A DNA stretch of 64,000 nucleotides from Alphaproteobacteria bacterium UBA6411 (GCA_002438565.1 DJPN01000021.1:61684-125683), one strand, 5' to 3'; counted from the first letter of the stretch, positions 24,411 to 36,144 are shown. Program-made: numbers and translations. The notes: a model not told the origin generated them from the sequence alone.

Positions 24411-24517
24411 ATCCGCCGGCGAGAAGGACGCGGGACGCGTTCGGCCGCCCTTGGCGACGACGCCGTCAAGCGGGGGCGAAAGCCCCGAGCGTTAGCGAGC
24501 AACCGCGGCGGGGTGAT
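24411..24517 (+). repeat. tRNA-Arg-associated structured element, copy 2 (homologous to 19001-19113)
   Basis: gcgagaaggacgcgggacgcgttcgg ... gcgacgacgccgtcaagcgg-hairpin(gggggcgaaagcccc)-gagcgttagcgagc ... aaccgcggcggggtgatac (degenerate copy of the tRNA-Arg(UCU) 3' end). Confidence 0.6.
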
Positions 24518-24548
24518 ACTTTTTATTTTTTGATTTTGGCTCTAAAAT

Positions 24549-24560
24549 CAAAAAAAAAAA
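24549..24560. repeat. Homopolymeric A12 tract within an AT-only inverted repeat (ttttttgatttt / aaaatcaaaa)
   Basis: Direct count of 12 consecutive A. Confidence 0.8.
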
Positions 24561-24819
24561 ACGCACTTAAATCAAAGCGTTACAACTAATCAGATTTAAC
24601 GTCCGTTTGATTCGGGAATTTCGGGCAAAATCTGCCGCCACTCGAAATGATAGAAAATTTGTCATTCTTGCAAAATATTATTGCAATCAAAAGCTAAGTT
24701 TGCTATATGCAATAAAAACGGAGGATATCTTTGAAAAAATCTTTCGTTCAAACGAGGAAGGCAGGGGGATAAAATCGAATGAACACAGCATTTGTCAGAT
24801 ATTGCGGATATATAAAATG

Positions 24820-24831
24820 CCCCCCCCCCCC
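24820..24831. repeat. Homopolymeric C12 tract ~120 bp upstream of hldE, just downstream of a TTGTCA-15-TAAAAT promoter-like sequence
   Basis: Direct count of 12 consecutive C; lies in the intergenic/5' leader region of the heptose operon. Confidence 0.8.
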
Positions 24832-24951
24832 TATACGAACGGGAAGCCCCGCTTATGTCCAGAGCAATCAGCTTAAAACACGGGGGAAAAGTGCCGTCAA
24901 CGCGCTTCTCAATCTAAATCCCGTTCACTTGATAAATTGAGGAGAGGCTTC

Positions 24952-26424
24952 ATGCCCTTACTGGCTTCGTATATTAGAAATTTCAAAAATTTACGCATTC
25001 TGGTTATCGGAGACATTATGCTGGATCGTTTCGTATACGGCAAAGTCGAACGCATTTCGCCCGAAGCGCCTGTCCCCGTGTTTGATTTCAAAAAATCGTC
25101 CGACATGCTGGGTGGAGCGGGAAACGTTGTCGCAAATTTAGTGTCTTTGGGGGTGAAGACCTCTTTTATCGGCGTGGTCGGGCAAGATGACAGCGCGCGG
25201 GAAATTTCATCCTTGTTGGGAAAATTGGGGGCGTGTCATCATTTGATTCGGCTGAAAAACTATCCGACAATCGTCAAAACGCGCTTGATTGCCGGCAACA
25301 CGCATTTGCTGCGCGTCGATTGCGAAGAAAAATGGTTTACGCCGGATTCTGTTTTGCCGACCATTCGTTCCATTATTGAAAAAGCGGTAAAAAATGCGGA
25401 TTTGGTTCTTTTGTCGGATTATGCCAAGGGTGTTTTGGCCAAATCGACGGCGCAGGCGATTATCGCCGAATGTTGCAAAGCGGGTAAAAAAGTCCTTATA
25501 GATCCGAAAGGTTCCGATTGGTCGAAATACGAAAACGCAACTCTGGTCAAGCCGAATTTGAAAGAATTCAAAGAAGTGTGCGGACTTTCCGTCAATCCGT
25601 CGGATTCCGATTTTACGAAACATCTGTCCGACGGCGCAAAGCTGATTTTTAAACGCTATAAAATCAAAAGCCTGCTGATTACCTTGTCCGAACACGGTAT
25701 GGCGTACATTCATTCGTCCTCTCCCGACGAGGTTTATCAAATTCCCACCCAAGCCAAAGAAGTTTTCGACGTATCGGGTGCGGGGGATACGTCTTTGGCG
25801 ACCTTTGGCGCGGCATTCGGCGCGGGCGCTTTGCCCAAGGATGCGATGAAGCTGGCAAACACGGCGTCGGGCATAGTCGTCGGCAAAGTCGGAACGGCGT
25901 GCATTTCCGCAAACGAATTGGAAAACGCCCTGTCCGAACGCAATCCGGCCGCCGTGCCGAAAAGCAAAATCGTATCGCCGGAACAAGCCGCCGAAATCGC
26001 CGTTGAATTAAAGAAAAGCGGCAAAAAAACGGGCTTTACCAACGGCTGTTTCGATTTATTGCATTTGGGACATTTGCGATCGTTTGAAAATGCCAAAAAG
26101 GAATGTGACGTTTTGTTCGTCGGCGTGAATTCGGATGCGAGCGTCAAGCGCCACAAAGGCGATTCCCGCCCGATCCAAGATGAAAAAACGCGCGCTTTGC
26201 TGGTCGCTTCATTGGAAACGGTGGATTATGTCATCGTTTTTGACGACGACACGGCGCTTCCTTTGGTCGAAAAAATCCGTCCCGACGTTATCGCGAAAGA
26301 GGGTTATTTGCTTCAAAACTGGCCGGAGGCGCAATTCGTCGTTTCTTACGGCGGCCGCGCCGTTACGTTAAAGCGCGTTGACGGCTATTCCACCACGCAA
26401 ACCGTTGAAAGGATTAAACACTGA
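24952..26424 (+). CDS. hldE: Bifunctional D-beta-D-heptose 7-phosphate kinase / D-beta-D-heptose 1-phosphate adenylyltransferase
   Basis: N-terminal PfkB-like kinase domain and C-terminal cytidylyltransferase-like domain (GCFDLLHLGHLRSFENAKKECDVLFVGVNSD); gaggagagg RBS before the internal ATG. Confidence 0.85.
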   Translation: MPLLASYIRNFKNLRILVIGDIMLDRFVYGKVERISPEAPVPVFDFKKSSDMLGGAGNVVANLVSLGVKTSFIGVVGQDDSAREISSLLGKLGACHHLIRLKNYPTIVKTRLIAGNTHLLRVDCEEKWFTPDSVLPTIRSIIEKAVKNADLVLLSDYAKGVLAKSTAQAIIAECCKAGKKVLIDPKGSDWSKYENATLVKPNLKEFKEVCGLSVNPSDSDFTKHLSDGAKLIFKRYKIKSLLITLSEHGMAYIHSSSPDEVYQIPTQAKEVFDVSGAGDTSLATFGAAFGAGALPKDAMKLANTASGIVVGKVGTACISANELENALSERNPAAVPKSKIVSPEQAAEIAVELKKSGKKTGFTNGCFDLLHLGHLRSFENAKKECDVLFVGVNSDASVKRHKGDSRPIQDEKTRALLVASLETVDYVIVFDDDTALPLVEKIRPDVIAKEGYLLQNWPEAQFVVSYGGRAVTLKRVDGYSTTQTVERIKH

Positions 26425-26990
26425 TGCAGCAGGAAATCATTGCTTCGTTTCAGGAAAACGTTGCCGGTTTTACGGAAATCCAAACTTTGGCGCCCGTTAT
26501 CGAAAAAATCGCGCTGATATGCATTGACGCGATCCGCAACAACCGCAAAGTGATGTTTTGCGGCAATGGCGGTTCGGCGGCGGATTCGCAGCATTTGGCG
26601 GCGGAGCTGGTCGGGCGGTATAAAATGAACCGCCCCGCAATGAATGCGATAGCTTTGACAACGGACAGTTCGATTTTGACGGCGATCGGGAACGATTACG
26701 GTTATGACACGATTTTTGAACGCCAGGTCGAAGGCTTGGGGCAAAAAGGCGACGTTTTGGTCGGCATATCGACTTCGGGCAATTCAAAAAATGTGCTGCG
26801 CGCTTTTGAAATGGCGCGCAAAAAAGGCGTTTCGACGGTTGCTTTTACGGGAAAATCGGGCGGCAGAATGAAAGAAACGGCCGATATTTGCGTCAACGTG
26901 CCGTCCGACGTCACAAACCATATTCAAGAAATGCACATTGCCGTCGGGCATTTGATTTGCGGATTGGTCGAAAGGGTTGTCAATGGCTAA
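26424..26990 (+). CDS. gmhA: Phosphoheptose isomerase (SIS domain)
   Basis: SIS-domain motifs ...VMFCGNGGSAADSQHLAAEL ... GISTSGNSKNV...; start overlaps the hldE stop. Confidence 0.85.
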   Translation: MQQEIIASFQENVAGFTEIQTLAPVIEKIALICIDAIRNNRKVMFCGNGGSAADSQHLAAELVGRYKMNRPAMNAIALTTDSSILTAIGNDYGYDTIFERQVEGLGQKGDVLVGISTSGNSKNVLRAFEMARKKGVSTVAFTGKSGGRMKETADICVNVPSDVTNHIQEMHIAVGHLICGLVERVVNG

Positions 26991-27495
26991 AGCTTTGTTT
27001 TTGGATCGCGACGGTACAATCAACATTGATTACGGATACGTTTTTGAACCCGAACGGTTTGAATTCGTTGACGGAATCTTTGATTTATGCCATGCGGCGC
27101 AATCCAAAGGCTTTAAAATCATTGTTTGCACGAACCAATCGGGCATTGCGCGCGGGTATTTCACCGAAGCCGACTTTCAAAAAATTACGGCGCATATGGT
27201 GAAAAAGTTTTCTGAACAACGCATTGAAATCGCGGACGTTTTTCATTGTCCGACATTGGACGGCATTGACCGCAAGCCCAATACGGGAATGTTCGTCAAA
27301 GCGCGCGACAAACACGGAATCAATATGGCGGCAAGTATTTCCTTGGGTGACAGCGAACGCGACGTGATTGCGGGAATAAACGCAGGCGTCGGAACAAATT
27401 ATTTGTTGTCGAAAAAGAAAATCGCCGCTCCGATTTGCCCCGTTGTTTCAAGCTGCCGCGAATTGGCGGAACTCATTGAAAAAGGTGTCGAATGA
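26977..27495 (+). CDS. gmhB: D,D-heptose 1,7-bisphosphate phosphatase (HAD, histidinol-phosphatase-like)
   Basis: ALFLDRDGTIN motif I, CTNQSGIARGYF motif; overlaps the gmhA end. Confidence 0.8.
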   Translation: MSMAKALFLDRDGTINIDYGYVFEPERFEFVDGIFDLCHAAQSKGFKIIVCTNQSGIARGYFTEADFQKITAHMVKKFSEQRIEIADVFHCPTLDGIDRKPNTGMFVKARDKHGINMAASISLGDSERDVIAGINAGVGTNYLLSKKKIAAPICPVVSSCRELAELIEKGVE

Positions 27496-28616
27496 ATTAT
27501 TTTGACAAGCTGGACCATCGATCCGCCCGCATGCGCGAAAAATATCCGACTCGTCCGCGCAAAGCCGCCGCGTCAATGTTGATGTGGACTGTTAAAAACC
27601 TGTTTCCAAAGGCGGACAAAACCGTTTTTACGGATGGCAGGCTGCATATTGCCGTCAGCGTTTTGGGCGGATTGGGCGATTTGTTTTTTGCCGCGCGGTA
27701 TGTCGAAAGGCTGTCCCGTTATTTTGGACAAAAAGTTACCGTTTGCATGGAAAATAGCGCGGCGTACGCTCAGCCTGTTTTTGGCGGATTAAGCGGCGTT
27801 GAAGCGATTGTTGCCCCAAACGGCGCGCCGTGCGATATTAAAATTCGATTGGTTCGTTTTCCGGAAATCGTTTTTTGCGACTTTAAACGCTTAAAAGCCG
27901 TCGGCGACAGCAAAATCAAAGCTTATGTGCAGTCTTTGCTTGATTTTCGATCCGGCTTTCCTCTGGTATACAACAACGATTATTTTGGGTATCGCTATGC
28001 CCAAGCAAAGGGCAAAAAACGCGAAGATCAACCGGATATTGACGGGATTTTGCATTTGGCGGACGTTTCGCTGAACATACCTGCGGCCGATCCGCAAATT
28101 GGCAAGCCTTTTATCACGATTCAAACTGGATACGGCGAACATTTTAAGGGTGTGGAATCCGAAACGCGCCAATGGGGTGTCGAAAAATATGAACGGCTGA
28201 TTGAATTGCTAAAGCAGGAATACCCGCGTTTTAAGACTGTTCAAATCGGGGCGGATTATCATCCGCGCATCCAAGAAACGGATTTCGATTTGCGTGGCAA
28301 AACATCAATTCCGGAAGTGTTCGGTTTGCTGAAAAACGCCGCTCTGCATATTCAGCAGGAAGGCGGATTTGCAATCGCGCGGCACTATTTGTGCGGCAAA
28401 CCGTCGGTCGTTTTGTTCGGCCCGACGGATGAAAAATTCTTGGGGTTTCCGGAAAATTTAAATCTTCGCGCGCCGGGATTCGAATGCATATGCGAAGGAC
28501 TGACCCAAAAATGGTATCAAAAATGTTTGAAAACGGGCGGTTGCGCGGCGTGCATGCGGGCGTTGTCCGCACAAACCGTGTTTGAAAAAATCAAAGAAAG
28601 CAAAATATTGGAGTAA
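27492..28616 (+). CDS. Glycosyltransferase family 9 (LPS heptosyltransferase-like) with a ~60-aa N-terminal extension
   Basis: GT9-type C-terminal region (...LRGKTSIPEVFGLLKNAALHI...GPTD...); operon position after gmhB. Confidence 0.65.
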   Translation: MNYFDKLDHRSARMREKYPTRPRKAAASMLMWTVKNLFPKADKTVFTDGRLHIAVSVLGGLGDLFFAARYVERLSRYFGQKVTVCMENSAAYAQPVFGGLSGVEAIVAPNGAPCDIKIRLVRFPEIVFCDFKRLKAVGDSKIKAYVQSLLDFRSGFPLVYNNDYFGYRYAQAKGKKREDQPDIDGILHLADVSLNIPAADPQIGKPFITIQTGYGEHFKGVESETRQWGVEKYERLIELLKQEYPRFKTVQIGADYHPRIQETDFDLRGKTSIPEVFGLLKNAALHIQQEGGFAIARHYLCGKPSVVLFGPTDEKFLGFPENLNLRAPGFECICEGLTQKWYQKCLKTGGCAACMRALSAQTVFEKIKESKILE

Positions 28617-28619
28617 TTT

Positions 28620-29828
28620 ATGAAAAATTATTTTGAAAAACTTGAACGCAGAGTTCAAAAATATAAAACAAAATATGCAAATCGCCCGCGCAAAGCCGCA
28701 TTCAAACTCGCCTTGTGGAATACATTGTGCGTGTTTAAACGGCACAAACGTCAAGATATCGTTGATTTACAAAGCATAACAAAACCTGTCAACAAAATTG
28801 CACTTGCAATTAACGGCGGCATAGGCGATTACATCACAGCAATAAATTATGCTGCATACCTTTATAATTTTTTAAACAAACAAACACCGATAGATATTTT
28901 TGTAAAAAATCCCAAAAGCATGAAAACTCTTTTCAGCAAATCTGTCAATTTTGATTTTTTTGAACGGGATTCCATTCATGAAAAAAAGGAATATCCGCTT
29001 AAACTGAATTTGAATAGATTTCCAGAGATACTATACTGCAATGAAACCGCCCTGCATGAAATGATGCCGAATGTTATTCCTTTGCTCAACGCTTGGGAAA
29101 AAATTAAAAAAGAAGCGGGGTTGTATTTTGAAATTGACCCCCGCGCAGACGCCTTAACCGTGCAGTACGCGCAAGTTAACGGTGCCAAAAAAAGAATACA
29201 GCAACCGGATATTGACGGAATATTAGGTGTTAAGGAAGAACACCTTATAAAACTTTATCCCGAAAGTACAACGGAAGTTTTAGAAAAATTCGGATTAAAC
29301 GATTGCGTTTTTATCACAATGAACCGCGGAACGGATACAGGCAACAAAGATAACGAAGTTACGCGTATGTGGCCCTTGGAAAATTATGCAAAACTTGTAA
29401 AATTGATAAAAAACAAATATCCTCGATGCAAAATCGTGCAGTTGGGATATTCCCCCGAATGGTGCAGGCTCATAGACGGCATTGATATTGATTTGCGCGG
29501 AAAAACAACGCTTTTTGAACTGAAGTCCCTGCTTTTTGCATCCGCCTTGCACATAGATTACGAAGGAGGAATGGTTCATTTACGAAAAGCGTTAGGGGTG
29601 GGAAAATCCATAGTCCTGTTTGGTCCGACAAACCCTAACTGGCTAGGATATGATACAAATATCAATATCTGCACAAACAAATGCTGTTTTTGTGAAAATC
29701 TCACTCCGAATTGGCAAAAATATTGCTCGAATCATAAATTTCCACACATTTGCATGGAAAGCATAACTCCTGAAATGGTATTCAATAAAGTCAACGCAGT
29801 TTTATCTTCTGTAAAAAGCCGAGTGTAA
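28620..29828 (+). CDS. Second, paralogous GT9-like glycosyltransferase; AT-rich codon usage
   Basis: N-terminus MKNYFEKLERRVQKYKTKYANRPRKAAFKLALW parallels the N-terminus of the upstream gene; noticeably lower GC. Confidence 0.65.
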   Translation: MKNYFEKLERRVQKYKTKYANRPRKAAFKLALWNTLCVFKRHKRQDIVDLQSITKPVNKIALAINGGIGDYITAINYAAYLYNFLNKQTPIDIFVKNPKSMKTLFSKSVNFDFFERDSIHEKKEYPLKLNLNRFPEILYCNETALHEMMPNVIPLLNAWEKIKKEAGLYFEIDPRADALTVQYAQVNGAKKRIQQPDIDGILGVKEEHLIKLYPESTTEVLEKFGLNDCVFITMNRGTDTGNKDNEVTRMWPLENYAKLVKLIKNKYPRCKIVQLGYSPEWCRLIDGIDIDLRGKTTLFELKSLLFASALHIDYEGGMVHLRKALGVGKSIVLFGPTNPNWLGYDTNINICTNKCCFCENLTPNWQKYCSNHKFPHICMESITPEMVFNKVNAVLSSVKSRV

Positions 29829-29842
29829 AACACTCGGCTTTT
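29812..29842. terminator. Bidirectional rho-independent terminator (agccgagtg-taaaa-cactcggct flanked by A- and T-runs)
   Basis: Perfect 9-bp stem with a 5-nt loop between convergent genes. Confidence 0.6.
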
Positions 29843-29849
29843 CCCTGTT

Positions 29850-30206
29850 TCAGTATGGATATTTCAGACGAATTTCCGCTTTTGTGTTCAGCCACAGCGT
29901 TTTCTTTTCATCCGCATCCGGACTGTTTGTCGCAACCGCTTCATCATAGTCGAATTTCAACGGATCGGCGAATGTGCAAAAAGCTTGCTGTCTGTTTTTG
30001 CGGGCGGTTTCCCTCGCGATTTCAAGCGGAACGGACGGCAACGCGCTTTTCGCATAATATCCGCCGTCATATCCGACAACGATTTCTTCATCGGTTTGCG
30101 ACACGGTGAAATCGTTTAATCCGATAATTTTGCAGTTTTCGGTCAATTCCGCTTCCGTTTTGTTAAAAGCGACGATTTTCCCGTTTTTGGTTGCTGTATG
30201 CATCAG
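29850..30206 (-). CDS. Small protein (~118 aa from MHTATKNG) translationally coupled to the tail-fibre gene; possible tail-fibre chaperone/assembly factor
   Basis: TGATG stop/start overlap with the upstream tail-fibre gene; the longer ORF-track version (start 30380) overlaps the fibre gene and is unlikely. Confidence 0.4.
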   Translation of the reverse strand: MMHTATKNGKIVAFNKTEAELTENCKIIGLNDFTVSQTDEEIVVGYDGGYYAKSALPSVPLEIARETARKNRQQAFCTFADPLKFDYDEAVATNSPDADEKKTLWLNTKAEIRLKYPY

Positions 30207-31072
30207 TTGTTTTCCCCTTGTGCGTAAATAAATCTGAACACGTTTGTTTTGCCCTGCAGGCTGTAGCCGATTGCAACGGAACTTCCTTTTCGCGCAGGCA
30301 AAGCCACAGAGAGCTCGTATCCCGCATGCGACGATACGATGTTGTATCCCAAATTCGACATGTCTTTGATACACACCCATTCACCGGCGTATTTGGCGTC
30401 TTTTGCCAACACGAACCACCCGTCCGCGGGTGCCGTGTAAAAATGCCCGCTTTCCTGCAATGTCAAATCAACGTATTTACCGCTCGGCATGCTTAAATTT
30501 GAAACAACGGATTTCCCCTCTGCTGTCAAATTGCCCAAATCCGCATTTGCTTTTGTTTCCAGCATCGCCGCCGTATTGACCTCCGATGACGCGGCGTTCG
30601 CTGCAGACGCTGTTGCGGCGGCCGCTTTCTCGACAGCCGTTTGGGCGGCCGCAGTGCAATCGGAAACCGCTTTTCTAATGCTGGGAATCAAGCTGTCCGC
30701 CGCCGTGTCGTCGAAAATATCCACTGTTACGGCGCGCGCGGATTTTTCCGCCAGCTGTTGCACCTGCATCGTCAGCTTGTCAAAGTTGCGTTCCAGCGTT
30801 TCGGCGTGCAAAATCTCGTTGTCGCGGTAGTCCGTTTCCTGCGTCAAAGGCACTTCGCGCACAATCGCGATTTCCGCCCCGTTTTCGGGAGCGTCCGCAA
30901 ACACCAGATTGCCGCCTTTGACCGTCCAGTCCGTCCGTTCCGTCTGTATGTCGTTCTTTTTCTGCCTGACTTTGATATGCTCCTTTTCCAAAAAGGAAAA
31001 CGGGATTGCAAACTCTTTCGCAACCCCGTTTCCGATATAAATCACCTTGTTTGTTTGACTGCTTACCGTCAT
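30203..31072 (-). CDS. Phage T7-type tail-fibre protein (N-terminal Phage_T7_tail-like domain, Ala-rich shaft, C-terminal tip), 289 aa
   Basis: KVIYIGNGVAKEFAIPFSFLEKEHIKV and DNEILHAETLERNFDKLTMQVQQLAEKSA resemble the T7 gp17 N-terminal region as recalled from memory; gagagga RBS 7 nt upstream. Confidence 0.6.
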   Translation of the reverse strand: MTVSSQTNKVIYIGNGVAKEFAIPFSFLEKEHIKVRQKKNDIQTERTDWTVKGGNLVFADAPENGAEIAIVREVPLTQETDYRDNEILHAETLERNFDKLTMQVQQLAEKSARAVTVDIFDDTAADSLIPSIRKAVSDCTAAAQTAVEKAAAATASAANAASSEVNTAAMLETKANADLGNLTAEGKSVVSNLSMPSGKYVDLTLQESGHFYTAPADGWFVLAKDAKYAGEWVCIKDMSNLGYNIVSSHAGYELSVALPARKGSSVAIGYSLQGKTNVFRFIYAQGENN

Positions 31073-31086
31073 TTTTTATCCTCTCA

Positions 31087-31112
31087 ATAAAAAAGCGGGG
31101 ATTTTCCCCGCC
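31087..31112 (-). terminator. Rho-independent terminator after the adenosine-deaminase gene (gcgggga-tttt-ccccgc plus T-run on the minus strand)
   Basis: Hairpin plus T-run read on the minus strand. Confidence 0.55.
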
Positions 31113-31182
31113 GTTCACAGTCAACGCACTTTCTCAATCTTACAGCATATTGTGATTATTTTTTCATGGATGTCAAGGCGCT

Positions 31183-33447
31183 TTACTTAAACCGGCAATC
31201 ATTTTGATTTTCTTCCTTGACAAAGCTTTGTTCCAGCGAGCTTTTGCGCAGGTATTCCACAAAATCGTACACTTCTTCCGCAGAAGCTCCGTTTTCCAAC
31301 AAAGTTTTGGCAATCACGGCATATTCCATCCCCAAACTGGTCTGGAACACCGCGCTGTCATCCGTGTTGACGCATACCGGCACATCGCAATCCGCCGCGG
31401 CCAAAGAATAAAGGCCGTGCCTGTTCAGCGCAAACAGCGGCAAATCCGCAAAGTTGTCTATCGGCGATATTTTCCGGTTTGACGACGGATTGGCTTCAAC
31501 GGCTATTCCTTTTTCCGCAATCAGCTTTTTCAGAAAAGACTGACATTCGGACAGAACTTTCAAATACGTTTCGTCAACGCGGATTTTAACCTCTTTGTTC
31601 CTTTGTTTTTTATATTTTTCATCGTAAAAATAGCACCAATTCAGCTTGCGCGCCGTTTCGCTTCGGACAGCTTCGCGATAAGCGGCATTTCCACCGTTTT
31701 GCCGCCAAACTTCGAGAGAATTCGGGGCGTCCCCTTCTTGATTGTACAGTTCGGGATCATCCGCCCTCAACCGCCATGAAGCCAGATAAGTGTCTATATC
31801 CACGGCGCAAAAATCGCCCCGTCCTTCAAAAATCACATTTCTGATTTCCGTAAAGCGGTTTGAAACCTCAAACGACAGCAAAGGGTCAGCCCCCTGTTTC
31901 CTCAGCATGAAAAACAGCCACGCCAGATTGTCCAGATATTCCCCCGCCGGTATGACGACACATTCCATTCGTGTTTGCGCCAGCTGCCGCGGGCATGCCC
32001 CCAAAGCCAATGCATGTCCCAATCTGTCCCCGCGCCGGAAATTAAAGAAATCAATCACTTCATAGATGGCGCGCAAACCGGAACACAGCGACGTGTACAC
32101 TTCCCCGACATGGTAAGTAAACGATAAATCCGCCTTTTCGGCGCGGCATCGTCTGAAATACGGCGCATACAATTCGGGCTTCACGCACAATTCATCCCCC
32201 GCCGCGTCAATGCCGACGACATATTGAGAATAGGAACTGTTCAGCAGTCCTAAAATTTTTCTTGATTGATTGTTTATATCGCTTGTTTGGTGTAAAAGCG
32301 TTTTTCCTTTTTTCTTTATAAAGTGAAATATATACCCGCAATTCGGTTTGTTTTCGCCGTAAACGGATGTCAGCGAAGCGTCCATTTCGCTTTGAATATA
32401 TTTGAACTTTCTTTTTGTTTGAGGTGCGATTCTGAATTCGATTTTTGAAACAATATTTTCTTCGCTATACTTTTCAGCTATGCTTTTGTAAAGTTCTCCT
32501 TTGCCGCTGAACAGCAAATCTTTTTTAGCTTGACACTTTTGGAATTTTTCAAACCCCATGCCTATATTGTCCTGTGTAAACATAAAGAATTTTTGCACAA
32601 AACCTGTCAGATACAGATTGAATAAATCTCTGAACAATGGCTGAAAATCGTCTGTTTTTAAAAAACAGTTTTTCAAAAATCGCCGCTCACATTCGTAAAT
32701 TTGTCCGTTTTTATTTTTTTCGTCCAAACAATGCTGCATCCAGCGAAAATTATCCATATATTGCGCAACATTTCCATAATCTTTCGCGTCAAGAATGTTC
32801 ATGATGTCTTTCCGCGATAAAAAATTTTCATTCATAATATAATATTCAAGATATATTCTCAGCATTTTTAATTTCAGAGAAAAAATATCATCAAATTCTT
32901 TTATTTTGCAATAAAATGGCTTTTTGTAAATAAACGCGTACCAATTCAGCTCCGTCGAATATCCCGAAGCGTTCAAATGCATGTGGTTTTCGGCAACACC
33001 TTTTTCTTTCAAAGTGCTGCACAGCCGATGATTGTCATGTCCCGGCAAAAAAGAAAGCGGCAAATCTTTGGACGGGAACGCTGCGATATAAATATCGGCG
33101 GGCGCAACATTGATAAAATCATTCCATTCCAATAAATTGTCAAAGTTGATTTCGAGCTTTCTCCCTTTCGGGATCAAGTATTTTTTTGCCGCTTTAACAA
33201 ACATCTCATCGGCAAAGAAATGTTGCTTATCCCCGATTTTTTCATTGATGATGTTGTCCAGCAAAGCTTCCGAATAATTGTTTGGAAACAGCCTCAAGTA
33301 CCGGTCTTTAACCGTTTGATACGTTTTTTCATCTTTTAAATCAAAAGCCTCGCCGTCCGTATAGTCCGCGGAAACAATCCGTTCGCACAGATTGTTAAAA
33401 TCCGCGTCCTTATACGCACAACGAATCAATCGCTCCAAGTTCCTCAT
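31183..33447 (-). CDS. Large divergent adenosine-deaminase-family protein (RADAR RdrB-like), 754 aa
   Basis: All four ADA-fold metal/catalytic motifs in order: NHMHLNAS (HxH), YHVGEVY (HAGE-like), DRLGHALALG (GH), CVNTDDSAV (SLNTDD); large insertions and a ~130-aa N-terminal extension; AT-rich. Confidence 0.7.
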   Translation of the reverse strand: MRNLERLIRCAYKDADFNNLCERIVSADYTDGEAFDLKDEKTYQTVKDRYLRLFPNNYSEALLDNIINEKIGDKQHFFADEMFVKAAKKYLIPKGRKLEINFDNLLEWNDFINVAPADIYIAAFPSKDLPLSFLPGHDNHRLCSTLKEKGVAENHMHLNASGYSTELNWYAFIYKKPFYCKIKEFDDIFSLKLKMLRIYLEYYIMNENFLSRKDIMNILDAKDYGNVAQYMDNFRWMQHCLDEKNKNGQIYECERRFLKNCFLKTDDFQPLFRDLFNLYLTGFVQKFFMFTQDNIGMGFEKFQKCQAKKDLLFSGKGELYKSIAEKYSEENIVSKIEFRIAPQTKRKFKYIQSEMDASLTSVYGENKPNCGYIFHFIKKKGKTLLHQTSDINNQSRKILGLLNSSYSQYVVGIDAAGDELCVKPELYAPYFRRCRAEKADLSFTYHVGEVYTSLCSGLRAIYEVIDFFNFRRGDRLGHALALGACPRQLAQTRMECVVIPAGEYLDNLAWLFFMLRKQGADPLLSFEVSNRFTEIRNVIFEGRGDFCAVDIDTYLASWRLRADDPELYNQEGDAPNSLEVWRQNGGNAAYREAVRSETARKLNWCYFYDEKYKKQRNKEVKIRVDETYLKVLSECQSFLKKLIAEKGIAVEANPSSNRKISPIDNFADLPLFALNRHGLYSLAAADCDVPVCVNTDDSAVFQTSLGMEYAVIAKTLLENGASAEEVYDFVEYLRKSSLEQSFVKEENQNDCRFK

Positions 33448-34076
33448 TGGTCTTCCGGCATAAACTGCGGGTATTTTTTCAGAAGTTCTGTCAAATCTTT
33501 ATAATACCAGCTTTTGTATGATTTTTTACCGACATTTTTCAAATGGTTTGAAATATTCTTCGCTTTTGAAGCATCATCGTCTAAAAGAGCTTTAGACATT
33601 TTGTTTGAAATATCTTTCCAATCTTCGAACGTGATATTTACCAAGAAGTTTCTTACTTTTTCTTCATCAGCACTAAGAATAGGATTATCAAGTTTCATAT
33701 TTTCAAGAATTCTAACATCATGTATATTAAATAATTCACTACAATTATCTTGGCAAAATTTCATTTTTGACAACATTTTTTTTAAACCGATCTCATATTG
33801 AGAATGATTTTTAGAATCTCCTTTCTCATCCAGCAACCAGTTAATTTTTTCATAAATTTTCTCAACAAAGCAACTTTTCTTATTATAAAATGTAACTCGC
33901 ATAAACACATCCACATCAAACAAAGAATAAAACAAATATCCGCCATTCTGAATGGCTTTCAACAGATAATTTTTCTTCAGAACAGCGCTCAACGGATCCG
34001 ACCTATAATTTATGTTATTATTATCATTCCATTCAGATTTTTCATCATTTTCAATAACTATTTGATCATGATACAT
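33444..34076 (-). CDS. Hypothetical 210-aa protein within the RADAR-like cassette (no TM segment, no known motif)
   Basis: ORF overlaps the upstream NTPase gene by 19 nt and the downstream deaminase gene by 4 nt; very AT-rich. Confidence 0.45.
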   Translation of the reverse strand: MYHDQIVIENDEKSEWNDNNNINYRSDPLSAVLKKNYLLKAIQNGGYLFYSLFDVDVFMRVTFYNKKSCFVEKIYEKINWLLDEKGDSKNHSQYEIGLKKMLSKMKFCQDNCSELFNIHDVRILENMKLDNPILSADEEKVRNFLVNITFEDWKDISNKMSKALLDDDASKAKNISNHLKNVGKKSYKSWYYKDLTELLKKYPQFMPEDQ

Positions 34077-35986
34077 ATGTTTTTAAAGCTTGAGAAATCT
34101 CTCTTTTCCGAAAAACTTTTAGGACGAGCTGATTTCCACGTTCTTTCATTCTTTATTCTTGAATAGCAAATTTGCTTTACAATTTGCTTCAAACCTTCAG
34201 CAGTTTTATGCGTTTTTAAAACAGAAACATGGTCAACAAGATTACTATCCTTTTGAGCATAAAAATAATCATCAGGCATAAATTTGCAATTTACAAGTTT
34301 ACTGTAAGCATTGTCAGGCAAACAATATTCGTCTCCATCACGTCCAATATCTTCATTAGATTTTATTAAATCTGCATTTGTACTTTCGTCTTTATTTTTT
34401 TCTTCATCTTTTTCATTTTTAACATTTTCTATATCATGCTTTTCATCATCCAAAAAATCATCTGCATCAACAGGAGCTTCTTTATTTTCAGTCAAATCAT
34501 CTTCTTTTAGAAGCATTAAATTGTTCAACAAAGAAATTGAGTAAAGCAATTTTATTAAATAGCAAAAATACATAACCTGTTCATCAAAAGGAATGCATCT
34601 CTTTACAACTCCCGTGAATTGAATTACATCACCCAACATAACATTGTACGGTTCCGTTCGTTCAATATAAATCAAATCGCCGTTATGGTATTTTTCAACC
34701 AGCACTCCGTATTCACTTTCACCTTGGGATGCATAGTAATCTCTAAGCAATTTATCCAATTTTGAGCACATGTAATAATTTTTATTTTCAACACTTGTTT
34801 TGATCCACTCATCTAAAACAGAATAATATTTATCGTCCAAATTAGCTTTTGCTCTGGAAAGTACATAATTTTGATAATTTTTCAAATTTTGTTGTAAGCT
34901 TTCTTTTAAAACACTTCCCTTTTCATCTCGCATTTCGGGCATTTCAACCAACATACGGACAAAGGCCAACATTTCGCGCAACCCGTTCGGATAAATCAAA
35001 TGCACGCGTTCCTTTTCATCTACAGGATCCAAAGGAAGTGCGACTTTGTCCCGAACCAGCTTTTCCATAAAATCATGAAAATTTGTTTTTTCGTATTCTT
35101 TTTGTTTTTCATCGGAAATTTTATTAACAAACGGCTTCAAAATATCCCATGAGGTTTCATTGAAAAATTCTTTCTGCCCCTTCAAGTAGATGCGGCGGGA
35201 AACGGGCATTTGTTTTTCATAAAATTGAATGGCTTGATCTCTGATTTCCGAAATTGAAATAATTTCTTTATCAATCAAATTTATATTCTGTTTTATGAAT
35301 TGATCTTGAATGATATTCAAAAGCTGAACTTCGCGAAATGACAGAATCACGATGCAGTTTTTATTCAGCCATTTTTGAATATCTTCAATCATGCGGTAAA
35401 CATATTTGTTCGACACCAAATCCAAATCGTCGATGCAAACAATCATTTTCGTATCTTTGTCTTTTCCGATTGCTTTGTAAAAGCTTGTTATCAATTCTTT
35501 TAATAATTCGTCAAAGCGGTAACGCTTTTGGATCGTCCGTACAATATCGGAAGGATGATTGTCTTCGTAAAAACGTTCCTTGTTTGATTTGATATGTGAA
35601 ATCACTTCCATGATTTCATTCAATTTTTTATGGAATTCAGCAAATTCACCACTACCGTTTTCTTTAGACTTTTCAACCTGTTGAGCCAAAACACTGATGA
35701 AAAATTCCGGAATCAACAAAGTATCGTCAAAAATGCTGGGATCTATCGTATCAGTTACATAAAAGTTTTTATTTTCATCAAAATGTTTTTGAACAGCTTT
35801 AATCAAGGATGTTTTGCCGCATCCGCGATTGCCGACAATGCTGATGACATTGCTGCTGTTCTTTTCAAAATCATATCCTTTGCAAAGCTTTTCAATCCGC
35901 TCTATTTCATCTTTGAAAATATCTTCGGTTTCGCCCAACGGCCCCGTGATTTTTTCCCAATCGAATTGAACAGCATTTTCAGCCAT
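34058..35986 (-). CDS. P-loop NTPase (RADAR RdrA-like/KAP-like), ~642 aa, with an acidic low-complexity C-terminal region
   Basis: Walker A GNRGCGKTSL; Walker B IVCIDDLDLV (DDLD as in KAP NTPases); start assigned to the MAENAV ATG (gaaagg RBS 9 nt upstream) rather than the ORF-track start, which overlaps a terminator. Confidence 0.65.
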   Translation of the reverse strand: MAENAVQFDWEKITGPLGETEDIFKDEIERIEKLCKGYDFEKNSSNVISIVGNRGCGKTSLIKAVQKHFDENKNFYVTDTIDPSIFDDTLLIPEFFISVLAQQVEKSKENGSGEFAEFHKKLNEIMEVISHIKSNKERFYEDNHPSDIVRTIQKRYRFDELLKELITSFYKAIGKDKDTKMIVCIDDLDLVSNKYVYRMIEDIQKWLNKNCIVILSFREVQLLNIIQDQFIKQNINLIDKEIISISEIRDQAIQFYEKQMPVSRRIYLKGQKEFFNETSWDILKPFVNKISDEKQKEYEKTNFHDFMEKLVRDKVALPLDPVDEKERVHLIYPNGLREMLAFVRMLVEMPEMRDEKGSVLKESLQQNLKNYQNYVLSRAKANLDDKYYSVLDEWIKTSVENKNYYMCSKLDKLLRDYYASQGESEYGVLVEKYHNGDLIYIERTEPYNVMLGDVIQFTGVVKRCIPFDEQVMYFCYLIKLLYSISLLNNLMLLKEDDLTENKEAPVDADDFLDDEKHDIENVKNEKDEEKNKDESTNADLIKSNEDIGRDGDEYCLPDNAYSKLVNCKFMPDDYFYAQKDSNLVDHVSVLKTHKTAEGLKQIVKQICYSRIKNERTWKSARPKSFSEKRDFSSFKNICIMIK

Positions 35987-36043
35987 TATCATCATCCTTT
36001 CGTTGATATGCAACTTATCGGATGATGATAAGACGTTTTGTCG

Positions 36044-36065
36044 CCATTGACTATATAGGCAATGG
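36044..36065. promoter_or_regulatory. Inverted repeat CCATTG-N10-CAATGG surrounding a TATATA -10-like element, 58-80 bp upstream of the NTPase start
   Basis: Perfect 6-bp arms; positioned in the only intergenic space that can hold the cassette promoter. Confidence 0.35.
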
Positions 36066-36093
36066 TTGTACGCCTTTCGGCTATATTGGCGCA

Positions 36094-36130
36094 CAAAAAA
36101 AACGCGGGCAAACAAAACCCGCGCTTTTTA
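36094..36130. terminator. Bidirectional rho-independent terminator (cgcgggcaaacaaaacccgcg flanked by A8 and T5)
   Basis: Perfect 7-bp GC-rich stem between the PfkB kinase 3' end and the RADAR-like cassette. Confidence 0.6.
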
Positions 36131-36144
36131 TAACGAAAGCCTTC

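Follow-up and report, generated by a model that had tools for sequence, protein, structure and literature searches.

A gut alphaproteobacterial RADAR locus whose rdrA gene is split by a recent two-nucleotide insertion

Introduction

RADAR (rdrA-rdrB) is a two-gene anti-phage system with RdrA as its ATPase; a working system is characterised by protection against phage and by conversion of ATP to ITP through deamination upon infection. The closest described counterpart of the locus studied here is the RADAR system of Streptococcus suis, for which solved structures represent both RdrA (8FNU) and RdrB (8FNV/8FNW) (Duncan-Lowey et al. 2023, PMC9994260). In the heptamer, the lower ring is built by the C-terminal lobe of RdrA, for which a role as phage sensor has been proposed, and the S. 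suis system has been cloned into E. coli (PMC9994260). Two further kinds of arrangement resemble the present one at the level of the reading frames. In bacterial defence loci, genes split by homopolymer indels are likewise annotated as two separate, overlapping ORFs, and likewise carry multiple independent lesions across related strains. Programmed -1 frameshifting, as in dnaX, IS3/IS911 and at A_AAA_AAG sites, also involves an A-rich site followed by overlapping ORFs in the -1 frame. RADAR accessory genes of the RdrC/RdrD type, finally, are independent small genes without homology to RdrA that are kept beside rdrAB.

The window, i.e. the whole 64,000-nucleotide stretch analysed here, derives from Alphaproteobacteria bacterium UBA6411 (GCA_002438565.1 DJPN01000021.1:61684-125683). 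A first-pass annotation of this DNA had proposed that an NTPase gene and an overlapping 210-aa ORF may be a single RdrA-sized protein interrupted at a possible frameshift site, and had named a sequencing or mutational frameshift, programmed slippage and genuinely separate coupled genes as alternatives. The comparisons with protein homologues and with the DNA of intact alleles described below confirm the single-protein proposal.

Results

A RADAR locus with a divided rdrA

The features on which the analysis rests all lie on the minus strand of the window:

34058..35986, minus strand: rdrA 5' fragment (NTPase ORF), 642 aa; Pfam KAP_NTPase and 8fnu matches, identical to P0003
33444..34076, minus strand: rdrA 3' fragment (210-aa ORF); equals P0001 residues 657-866
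34080..34084, minus strand: frameshift site, A5 on the coding strand; from DNA alignment against intact alleles
31183..33447, minus strand: rdrB, intact adenosine deaminase, 754 aa; PADLOC, Pfam and PDB matches
36100..36132, minus strand: terminator-like hairpin followed by a T-run (gcgcgggttttgtttgcccgcgtttttttt), 3' of pfkB; read directly from the sequence

The NTPase ORF matches Pfam KAP_NTPase (3.8e-10) and contains the P-loop motifs Walker A (GNRGCGKTS, 35833..35807) and Walker B (CIDDLDL, 35437..35417). Its best solved relative, searched as a single sequence, is 8fnu_A (907 aa, 'KAP NTPase domain-containing protein', 2e-36), which is S. suis RdrA (PMC9994260). The longest version of this ORF would open at TTG 36115; the true start is likely to be ATG 35986 instead, which is called in the public assemblies (P0003) and is the sole start with a well-spaced AAAGGA (8 nt ahead). 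PADLOC returned weak PifA and mad8 matches for the NTPase and no RdrA model, because the family is too distant from the E. coli-type RdrA. The neighbouring gene is recognised as rdrB by PADLOC (1.4e-29), by Pfam A_deaminase (1.3e-13) and by its match to the RdrB structures 8fnv/8fnw (7.2e-27), and its start is preceded by GGAAG. Both genes are on the same strand, the rdrA stop and the rdrB ATG overlapping as ATGA (33444-33447), and the adjacency of rdrA and rdrB was also found at all related loci examined. The locus thus shows RdrB homology, adjacency in one operon and RdrA homology, the last only when both ORFs are joined; unlike S. suis RADAR, it encodes no full-length RdrA, the uninterrupted frame being broken by +2 nt that truncate RdrA at 642 aa.

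The rdrA-rdrB pair is a horizontally acquired island: rdrA has 32% GC and rdrB 42%, and the flanking clpA and pfkB have 55-57%. The hairpin and T-run at 36100..36132 mark its upstream edge. Related loci come from human gut and rumen, in MAGs that carry the label Alphaproteobacteria or Rhodospirillales; genome and metagenome scans, which contributed 5 extra loci each, served this host taxonomy and not the lesion census given below. The host, an uncultured gut alphaproteobacterium, and a variable acidic low-complexity insert in the family (P0001 residues ~517-577) further distinguish these systems from that of S. suis.

At the junction, the 3' end of the NTPase ORF reads ...AGC TTT AAA AAC ATA TGT ATC ATG ATC AAA TAG, its stop codon lying at 34060..34058. 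The 210-aa ORF begins just downstream of CTTTAAAAAC on the minus strand, with its ATG at 34076..34074, and overlaps the NTPase ORF by 19 nt in the -1 frame. This frame (tt TAA AAA CAT ATG TAT CAT GAT CAA) opens two codons ahead of the ATG. The overlap, the frame, the point of opening and the T3A5 sequence are all as the first-pass annotation had described them. It had placed the A5 run within 34040-34080; the run, which is T5 on the plus strand, occupies 34080-34084 and so touches or slightly exceeds the top of that interval. The ATG had also been said to have no obvious Shine-Dalgarno, and indeed no GGAG/AGGA-like sequence is present in the 20 nt upstream, in contrast to rdrA (AAAGGA) and rdrB (GGAAG). 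Fusing the two ORFs gives a protein of about 847-850 aa when counted from ATG 35986, in keeping with the ~850 aa that had been estimated.

Homology continues across the junction

If the two ORFs are parts of one gene, a fused product should resemble intact RdrA homologues on both sides of the junction. A search with a fused model (...SFKKHMYHDQ...) returned 53 clusters of proteins. The closest, P0001, is a single ORF of 866 aa (94% identical, 100% coverage), followed by P0002, also a single ORF, of 843 aa (85% identical, 100% coverage), and ~45 further clusters of 819-910 aa at 44-66% identity span 98-100% of the model. When 29 of these proteins are aligned, conserved columns occur to either side of the junction; examples of invariant positions (P0001 numbering) are Y628, S629, W637, R641 and P642 upstream, and D683, P684, K690, Y693, S707, F709, D712 and R716 downstream. 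The 29-protein profile matches S. suis RdrA end to end, covering residues 22-873 of the 907 in 8fnu in one stretch (E=4.8e-80). Its junction segment ...sfykfrplyhdeif... pairs with ...SVFRYRNLYSYLPL... of the S. suis protein, the downstream motif yvfyslFdvDvilR pairs with YFMSNMFHIDVFVR, and the part contributed by the 210-aa ORF falls at 8fnu residues ~650-873. Only the family profile extended the alignment this far: with the fused model alone, phmmer against the PDB ended at query residue 586 (8fnu 598), short of the junction.

Continuation of the profile homology across the junction identifies the 210-aa ORF as the end of the RdrA C-terminal alpha-helical lobe. It is 100% identical to P0001 residues 657-866, on which ground we rejected a RADAR accessory gene of the RdrC/RdrD type. 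As a query on its own, the 210-aa ORF returned no homologues in a search of cluster representatives. It is no orphan: its protein, P0054, belongs to the 90% cluster of P0001, and only representatives were indexed. The region around the junction itself is poorly conserved. The 29-protein consensus has many x positions there, and in an AlphaFold2 model of P0001 built with 29 sequences (pLDDT 57.8, pTM 0.40) the junction lies inside a segment, residues 649-701, with pLDDT <50.

Both findings that the first-pass annotation had said would refute its proposal were looked for, and neither was obtained: the orthologues exist as one gene, not as two overlapping genes with an independent start, and similarity runs on past the junction. 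The arrangement in the window, read as an evolved pair of coupled genes, is kept in none of the orthologues, and this reading is refuted.

Split and intact alleles differ by an AA insertion

We aligned the DNA of the window with that of 7 loci encoding intact P0001 and 4 loci encoding the split protein P0003. All seven intact loci read AGCTTTAAACATATG, which aligns as AGCTTT--AAACATATG and encodes S F K H M Y H D Q. In the window and 4/4 split loci the reading is AGCTTTAAAAACATATG, with two additional nucleotides (AA) in the AAA lysine codon, turning A3 into A5. The 180 nt shown upstream of this site are identical in 12/12 sequences (window, 7 intact, 4 split), the window and intact loci L001-L004 are identical over the 636 nt that extend downstream as far as the stop, and the order clpS-clpA-pfkB-rdrA-rdrB is common to intact and split alleles. 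Against a more distant intact locus, L014 (87% nucleotide identity), the A3/A5 difference is the sole indel whose length is not divisible by three. Set against the intact alleles, the frame-breaking indel falls precisely in the A-run; the junction is not a chance pattern, and the mutational frameshift that had been listed among the alternatives is the one borne out. The ATG of the 210-aa ORF is the ancestral internal Met codon (SFK-H-M-YHDQ), and the last seven codons of the 642-aa ORF (NICIMIK*) are an out-of-frame tail. This resembles other defence genes split by homopolymer indels, except that here the run is only A3 and the change is +2 nt, and that the 3' fragment starts at an ancestral Met and so mimics a translationally coupled gene. 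A gain of two nucleotides in a run of three A's is not the commonest type of slippage.

A sequencing or assembly artefact could be argued from the errors that some platforms make in homopolymers and from the low coverage of some contigs. The split protein is called on 12 contigs, and the four split loci read come from four samples (Logan SRR1747018 and SRR1747021, the NCBI MAG GCA_002404635.1 and ENA ERZ808269). As the same A5 was found at all four loci from these different samples, a sequencing artefact is excluded, and a 2-nt error in a 3-nt run would moreover be atypical, so that we give the artefact a next to negligible probability. Three of the four are the same strain as the window, since they are 100% identical to it over 10-11 kb; the fourth, L011, differs at 5/3441 positions, and there are at least two split haplotypes, P0003 and P0060, the latter differing at the N-terminus. 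The occurrence of the split allele on slightly different haplotypes implies that it is not strongly deleterious, as is expected for the loss of a defence gene. The insertion is recent, because the 3' fragment is without any substitution relative to the intact alleles. This zero divergence is uninformative on selection, in either direction. Taken together, the alignments indicate that the two ORFs are one rdrA gene, split by a real and recent +2 nt mutation in the A-run.

The junction does not resemble a programmed frameshift site

The same A-run raises the question of whether full-length RdrA could be restored in a set proportion by programmed or fortuitous recoding, either by a -1 ribosomal slip on A_AAC (within U_AAA_AAC) or by RNA polymerase slippage on T3A5. 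The A ahead of the A-site codon AAC makes up an A_AAC tetramer with it, the open stretch of the -1 frame starts at precisely that point, and the product of a slip (...SFKNHMYHDQ...) would be only one residue longer than ancestral RdrA. In the 0 frame, however, the site is U_AAA_AAC and not an X_XXY_YYZ heptamer, which leaves the A_AAC tetramer only. In E. coli, tetramers without a stimulator perform at about background (0.147% vs 0.112%), A_AAC is not one of the six tetramers on which a pseudoknot has an effect, and A_AAA_AAC is called a low-efficiency site (PMC4066793). The 121-nt segment comprising the site and its downstream sequence folds no more stably than shuffled versions of it (-18.5 kcal/mol; mean of the shuffles -16.6; z=-0.63), which gives no sign of a stimulatory structure, and no Shine-Dalgarno-like element was found upstream of it. 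The frameshift arrangement is not conserved among orthologues either, ~50 clusters being single ORFs and the nearest alleles having an in-frame A3. The flanks are identical in alleles that need no frameshift, and therefore no signal has evolved. The site thus departs from those of dnaX and IS3/IS911 in having no in-phase canonical heptamer, no stimulator and no conservation. Transcriptional slippage in bacteria, for its part, is known from runs considerably longer than five A's. We consider recoding very improbable, and programmed slippage as it had been suggested for this junction is not supported. A trace of full-length RdrA, ~0.1%, could still arise from slippage and would probably not matter.

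Recurrent rdrA lesions in the family

We placed short members of the 90% clusters on full-length relatives and read the sequence of seven more disrupted loci. Together with the window, the lesions and their positions in the protein are as follows:

window: +2, A3 to A5; aa 655 of 866
L012: +1, A7 to A8; aa 651 of 819
L013: nonsense and -1, A7 to A6; aa 476 and aa ~640 of 841
L027: +1, T6 to T7; aa 681 of 841
L026: -1, CC to C, called on 4 contigs; aa 555 of 833
L028: GAA to TAA nonsense; aa 513 of 896
L029: +1, A7 to A8; aa 252 of 833
L030: -1, A6 to A5; aa 742 of 859

Seven other alleles thus carry independent rdrA lesions, mostly ±1 changes in A or T runs. The gene, at 32% GC, contains about ten homopolymer runs of at least 6 bases; rdrA is hit repeatedly, mostly through changes in run length. 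Beside each broken rdrA, rdrB is an intact ORF of 750-782 aa, and one locus, L005, shows the converse: its rdrA is intact and its rdrB carries a deletion of 32 nt. With L012 and L013 broken within ~40 codons of the window site, we considered a single frameshift hot spot and rejected it, as the lesions, surveyed in cluster members and five additional loci, scatter over aa ~252-742 and include nonsense mutations; a dedicated switch in rdrA was rejected on the same scatter. There is a mild excess at aa ~640-681 (4/9 lesions), in numbers too small to evaluate.

This distribution bears on whether the split gene might still work, with the 642-aa and 210-aa chains assembling non-covalently into active RdrA and the 210-aa chain made by termination-reinitiation. 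Such an arrangement would profit from the intact 3' ORF, from an ATG 16 nt ahead of the new stop, and from a break that falls in the poorly conserved stretch described above; the mild excess of lesions near this position and the presence of the allele in several samples would also fit. It is, however, kept in no orthologue, ~150 other members of the family being single ORFs or carrying different lesions, and the ATG of the 210-aa ORF has no Shine-Dalgarno. The unchanged sequence of the 3' part carries no signal of selection in either direction. The other lesions are spread along the gene, and the combination of a nonsense mutation and a frameshift in L013 indicates decay. A functional split is, in our judgement, distinctly unlikely.

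Reversible changes in homopolymer length could alternatively switch RADAR on and off, in the manner of a contingency locus. Six of the seven frameshifts in the family are changes in homopolymer length, five in A-runs (the +2 of the window included) and one in a T-run, and intact (ERZ808252/275) and split (ERZ808269) alleles occur in neighbouring ENA analysis accessions. The tract in question is only A3/A5, far below typical contingency tracts, and the longer A7/A8 runs of the same gene are unchanged. Different lineages are broken at different sites, and their lesions include nonsense mutations and a non-homopolymer deletion. Among the homologues recovered, none is an intact protein with the haplotype of the window (which should have ~846 aa and ~100% identity), and the nearest intact allele is 94% identical and has other indels. 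Phase variation is accordingly given as little weight as recoding.

Discussion

The results of the current study place the locus within a known kind, i.e. a RADAR of the S. suis type with an ordinary frameshift, to which the recurrent loss of rdrA in the family is a modest extra. From the sequence comparisons we consider it very probable that rdrA has undergone a recent mutational split that probably inactivates RADAR, and we propose the following series of events. Two A's inserted in an AAA triplet (A3 to A5) shifted the frame after codon 635, so that a stop follows 7 codons later and the -1 frame now holds the last ~210 residues of the RdrA C-terminal lobe. The resulting 642-aa RdrA would retain the ATPase together with the beginning of the lobe, without the last ~210 residues. 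Heptamer architecture and sensing would probably be compromised, and RADAR would probably be inactive or crippled, because RdrA loses much of the lobe that forms the lower ring and is the proposed phage sensor. The 210-aa ORF would be at most weakly made, by re-initiation at the ancestral ATG ahead of the new stop. Translation of rdrB may also drop, because its coupling at the rdrA stop (ATGA) is lost. Such a split fits the repeated, independent rdrA lesions seen in the family.

As to the degree of inactivation, the 3' ORF is undamaged and its ATG stands where termination-reinitiation is physically possible. Together with the excess of lesions at aa ~640-681 and the intact rdrB beside every broken rdrA examined, these observations are the basis for a broader alternative, in which a split RdrA works, perhaps re-tuned, or indels in A/T-runs act as an on/off switch of RADAR at the level of the population. 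RADAR is described, in this alternative, as a costly, abortive-infection system. Judged on the same sequences, this broader alternative is unlikely, though slightly less so than the functional split taken singly, and we retain the recent, probably inactivating mutation as the best explanation.

The main use of the finding is in annotation: here and in public MAGs such as GCA_002404635.1, the 210-aa 'hypothetical protein' and the 642-aa 'KAP NTPase' are best combined into one entry marked as frameshifted rdrA, and the locus should be counted as a probably non-functional RADAR. The two alleles form a natural A3/A5 pair with identical immediate flanks, which suits a clean test of whether RdrA requires its last 210 residues in cis. 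More broadly, the uncultured gut and rumen Alphaproteobacteria clade has a well-populated family of S. suis-like RADAR systems, in which the independent lesions of at least eight rdrA alleles, and that of one rdrB, make up a small natural data set on the frequency and position of losses in a costly defence system.

Other broken rdrA alleles and the converse case

Beyond the allele of the window, seven independent rdrA-disrupting alleles were identified in the same protein family, and an intact rdrB adjoins each of them. Their lesions comprise five frameshifts (±1) in A or T runs, one CC -> C deletion and two nonsense codons. With the lesion of the window included in the count, four of nine fall within residues ~640-681 of RdrA.

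Positions of rdrA lesions in the related loci
L012: 2990-3010
L013: 5425-5430 and 5915-5925 (two lesions)
L026: 5655-5665
L027: 6040-6050
L028: 5536-5538
L029: 2665-2675
L030: 6185-6195

The opposite arrangement to a broken rdrA with an intact rdrB was observed at L005, where rdrA is intact (protein P0001) and a 32-nt frame-breaking deletion lies close to the 5' end of rdrB (L005:3200-3235).

Start and C-terminal lobe of RdrA

The length of 685 aa for the rdrA 5' ORF was rejected as an artefact of ORF listing, since the mechanical ORF begins at a TTG and the ATG that is probably the true start lies 43 codons further downstream (window 35986-36115, minus strand); this ORF also passes through the terminator-like hairpin of pfkB. 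Within the C-terminal lobe lies an acidic insert, which aligns only loosely and with gaps to the RdrA of S. suis and has a pLDDT <50 in the AF2 model.

Window 34300-34560, minus strand: acidic insert of low complexity, variable in length (KEDDLTENKEAPVDADDFLDDEKHDIENVKNEKDEEKNKDES...), P0001 residues ~517-577

Genomic setting of RADAR

In strains with intact rdrA (loci L001, L002 and L003), an additional gene pair that is missing from the window lies between clpA and pfkB; this hot spot may thus hold a further defence module.

Within L001:1727-4658
UvrD-like helicase, 839 aa
pEK499_p136-family protein, 136 aa

In one relative, relaxase, HTH_17 and Fic/Bro-N genes adjoin the RADAR operon (L030:1-3740), which is on a mobilisable element and not at the clpA-pfkB site.

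Beyond rdrB, a ~6.7 kb segment extends to an S8-peptidase autotransporter gene (window 24465-31207). It is missing from the intact-allele loci L001-L004 and encodes an LPS-heptose-like gene set.

Within window 24465-31207
HldE-like PfkB plus cytidylyltransferase
GmhA-like SIS protein
GmhB-like HAD protein
Unknown protein, 374 aa
GT9 heptosyltransferase
Besides the heptose-like set: 289-aa protein with an N-terminal Phage_T7_tail domain

This segment may represent strain-variable surface or phage-receptor chemistry beside the defence island.
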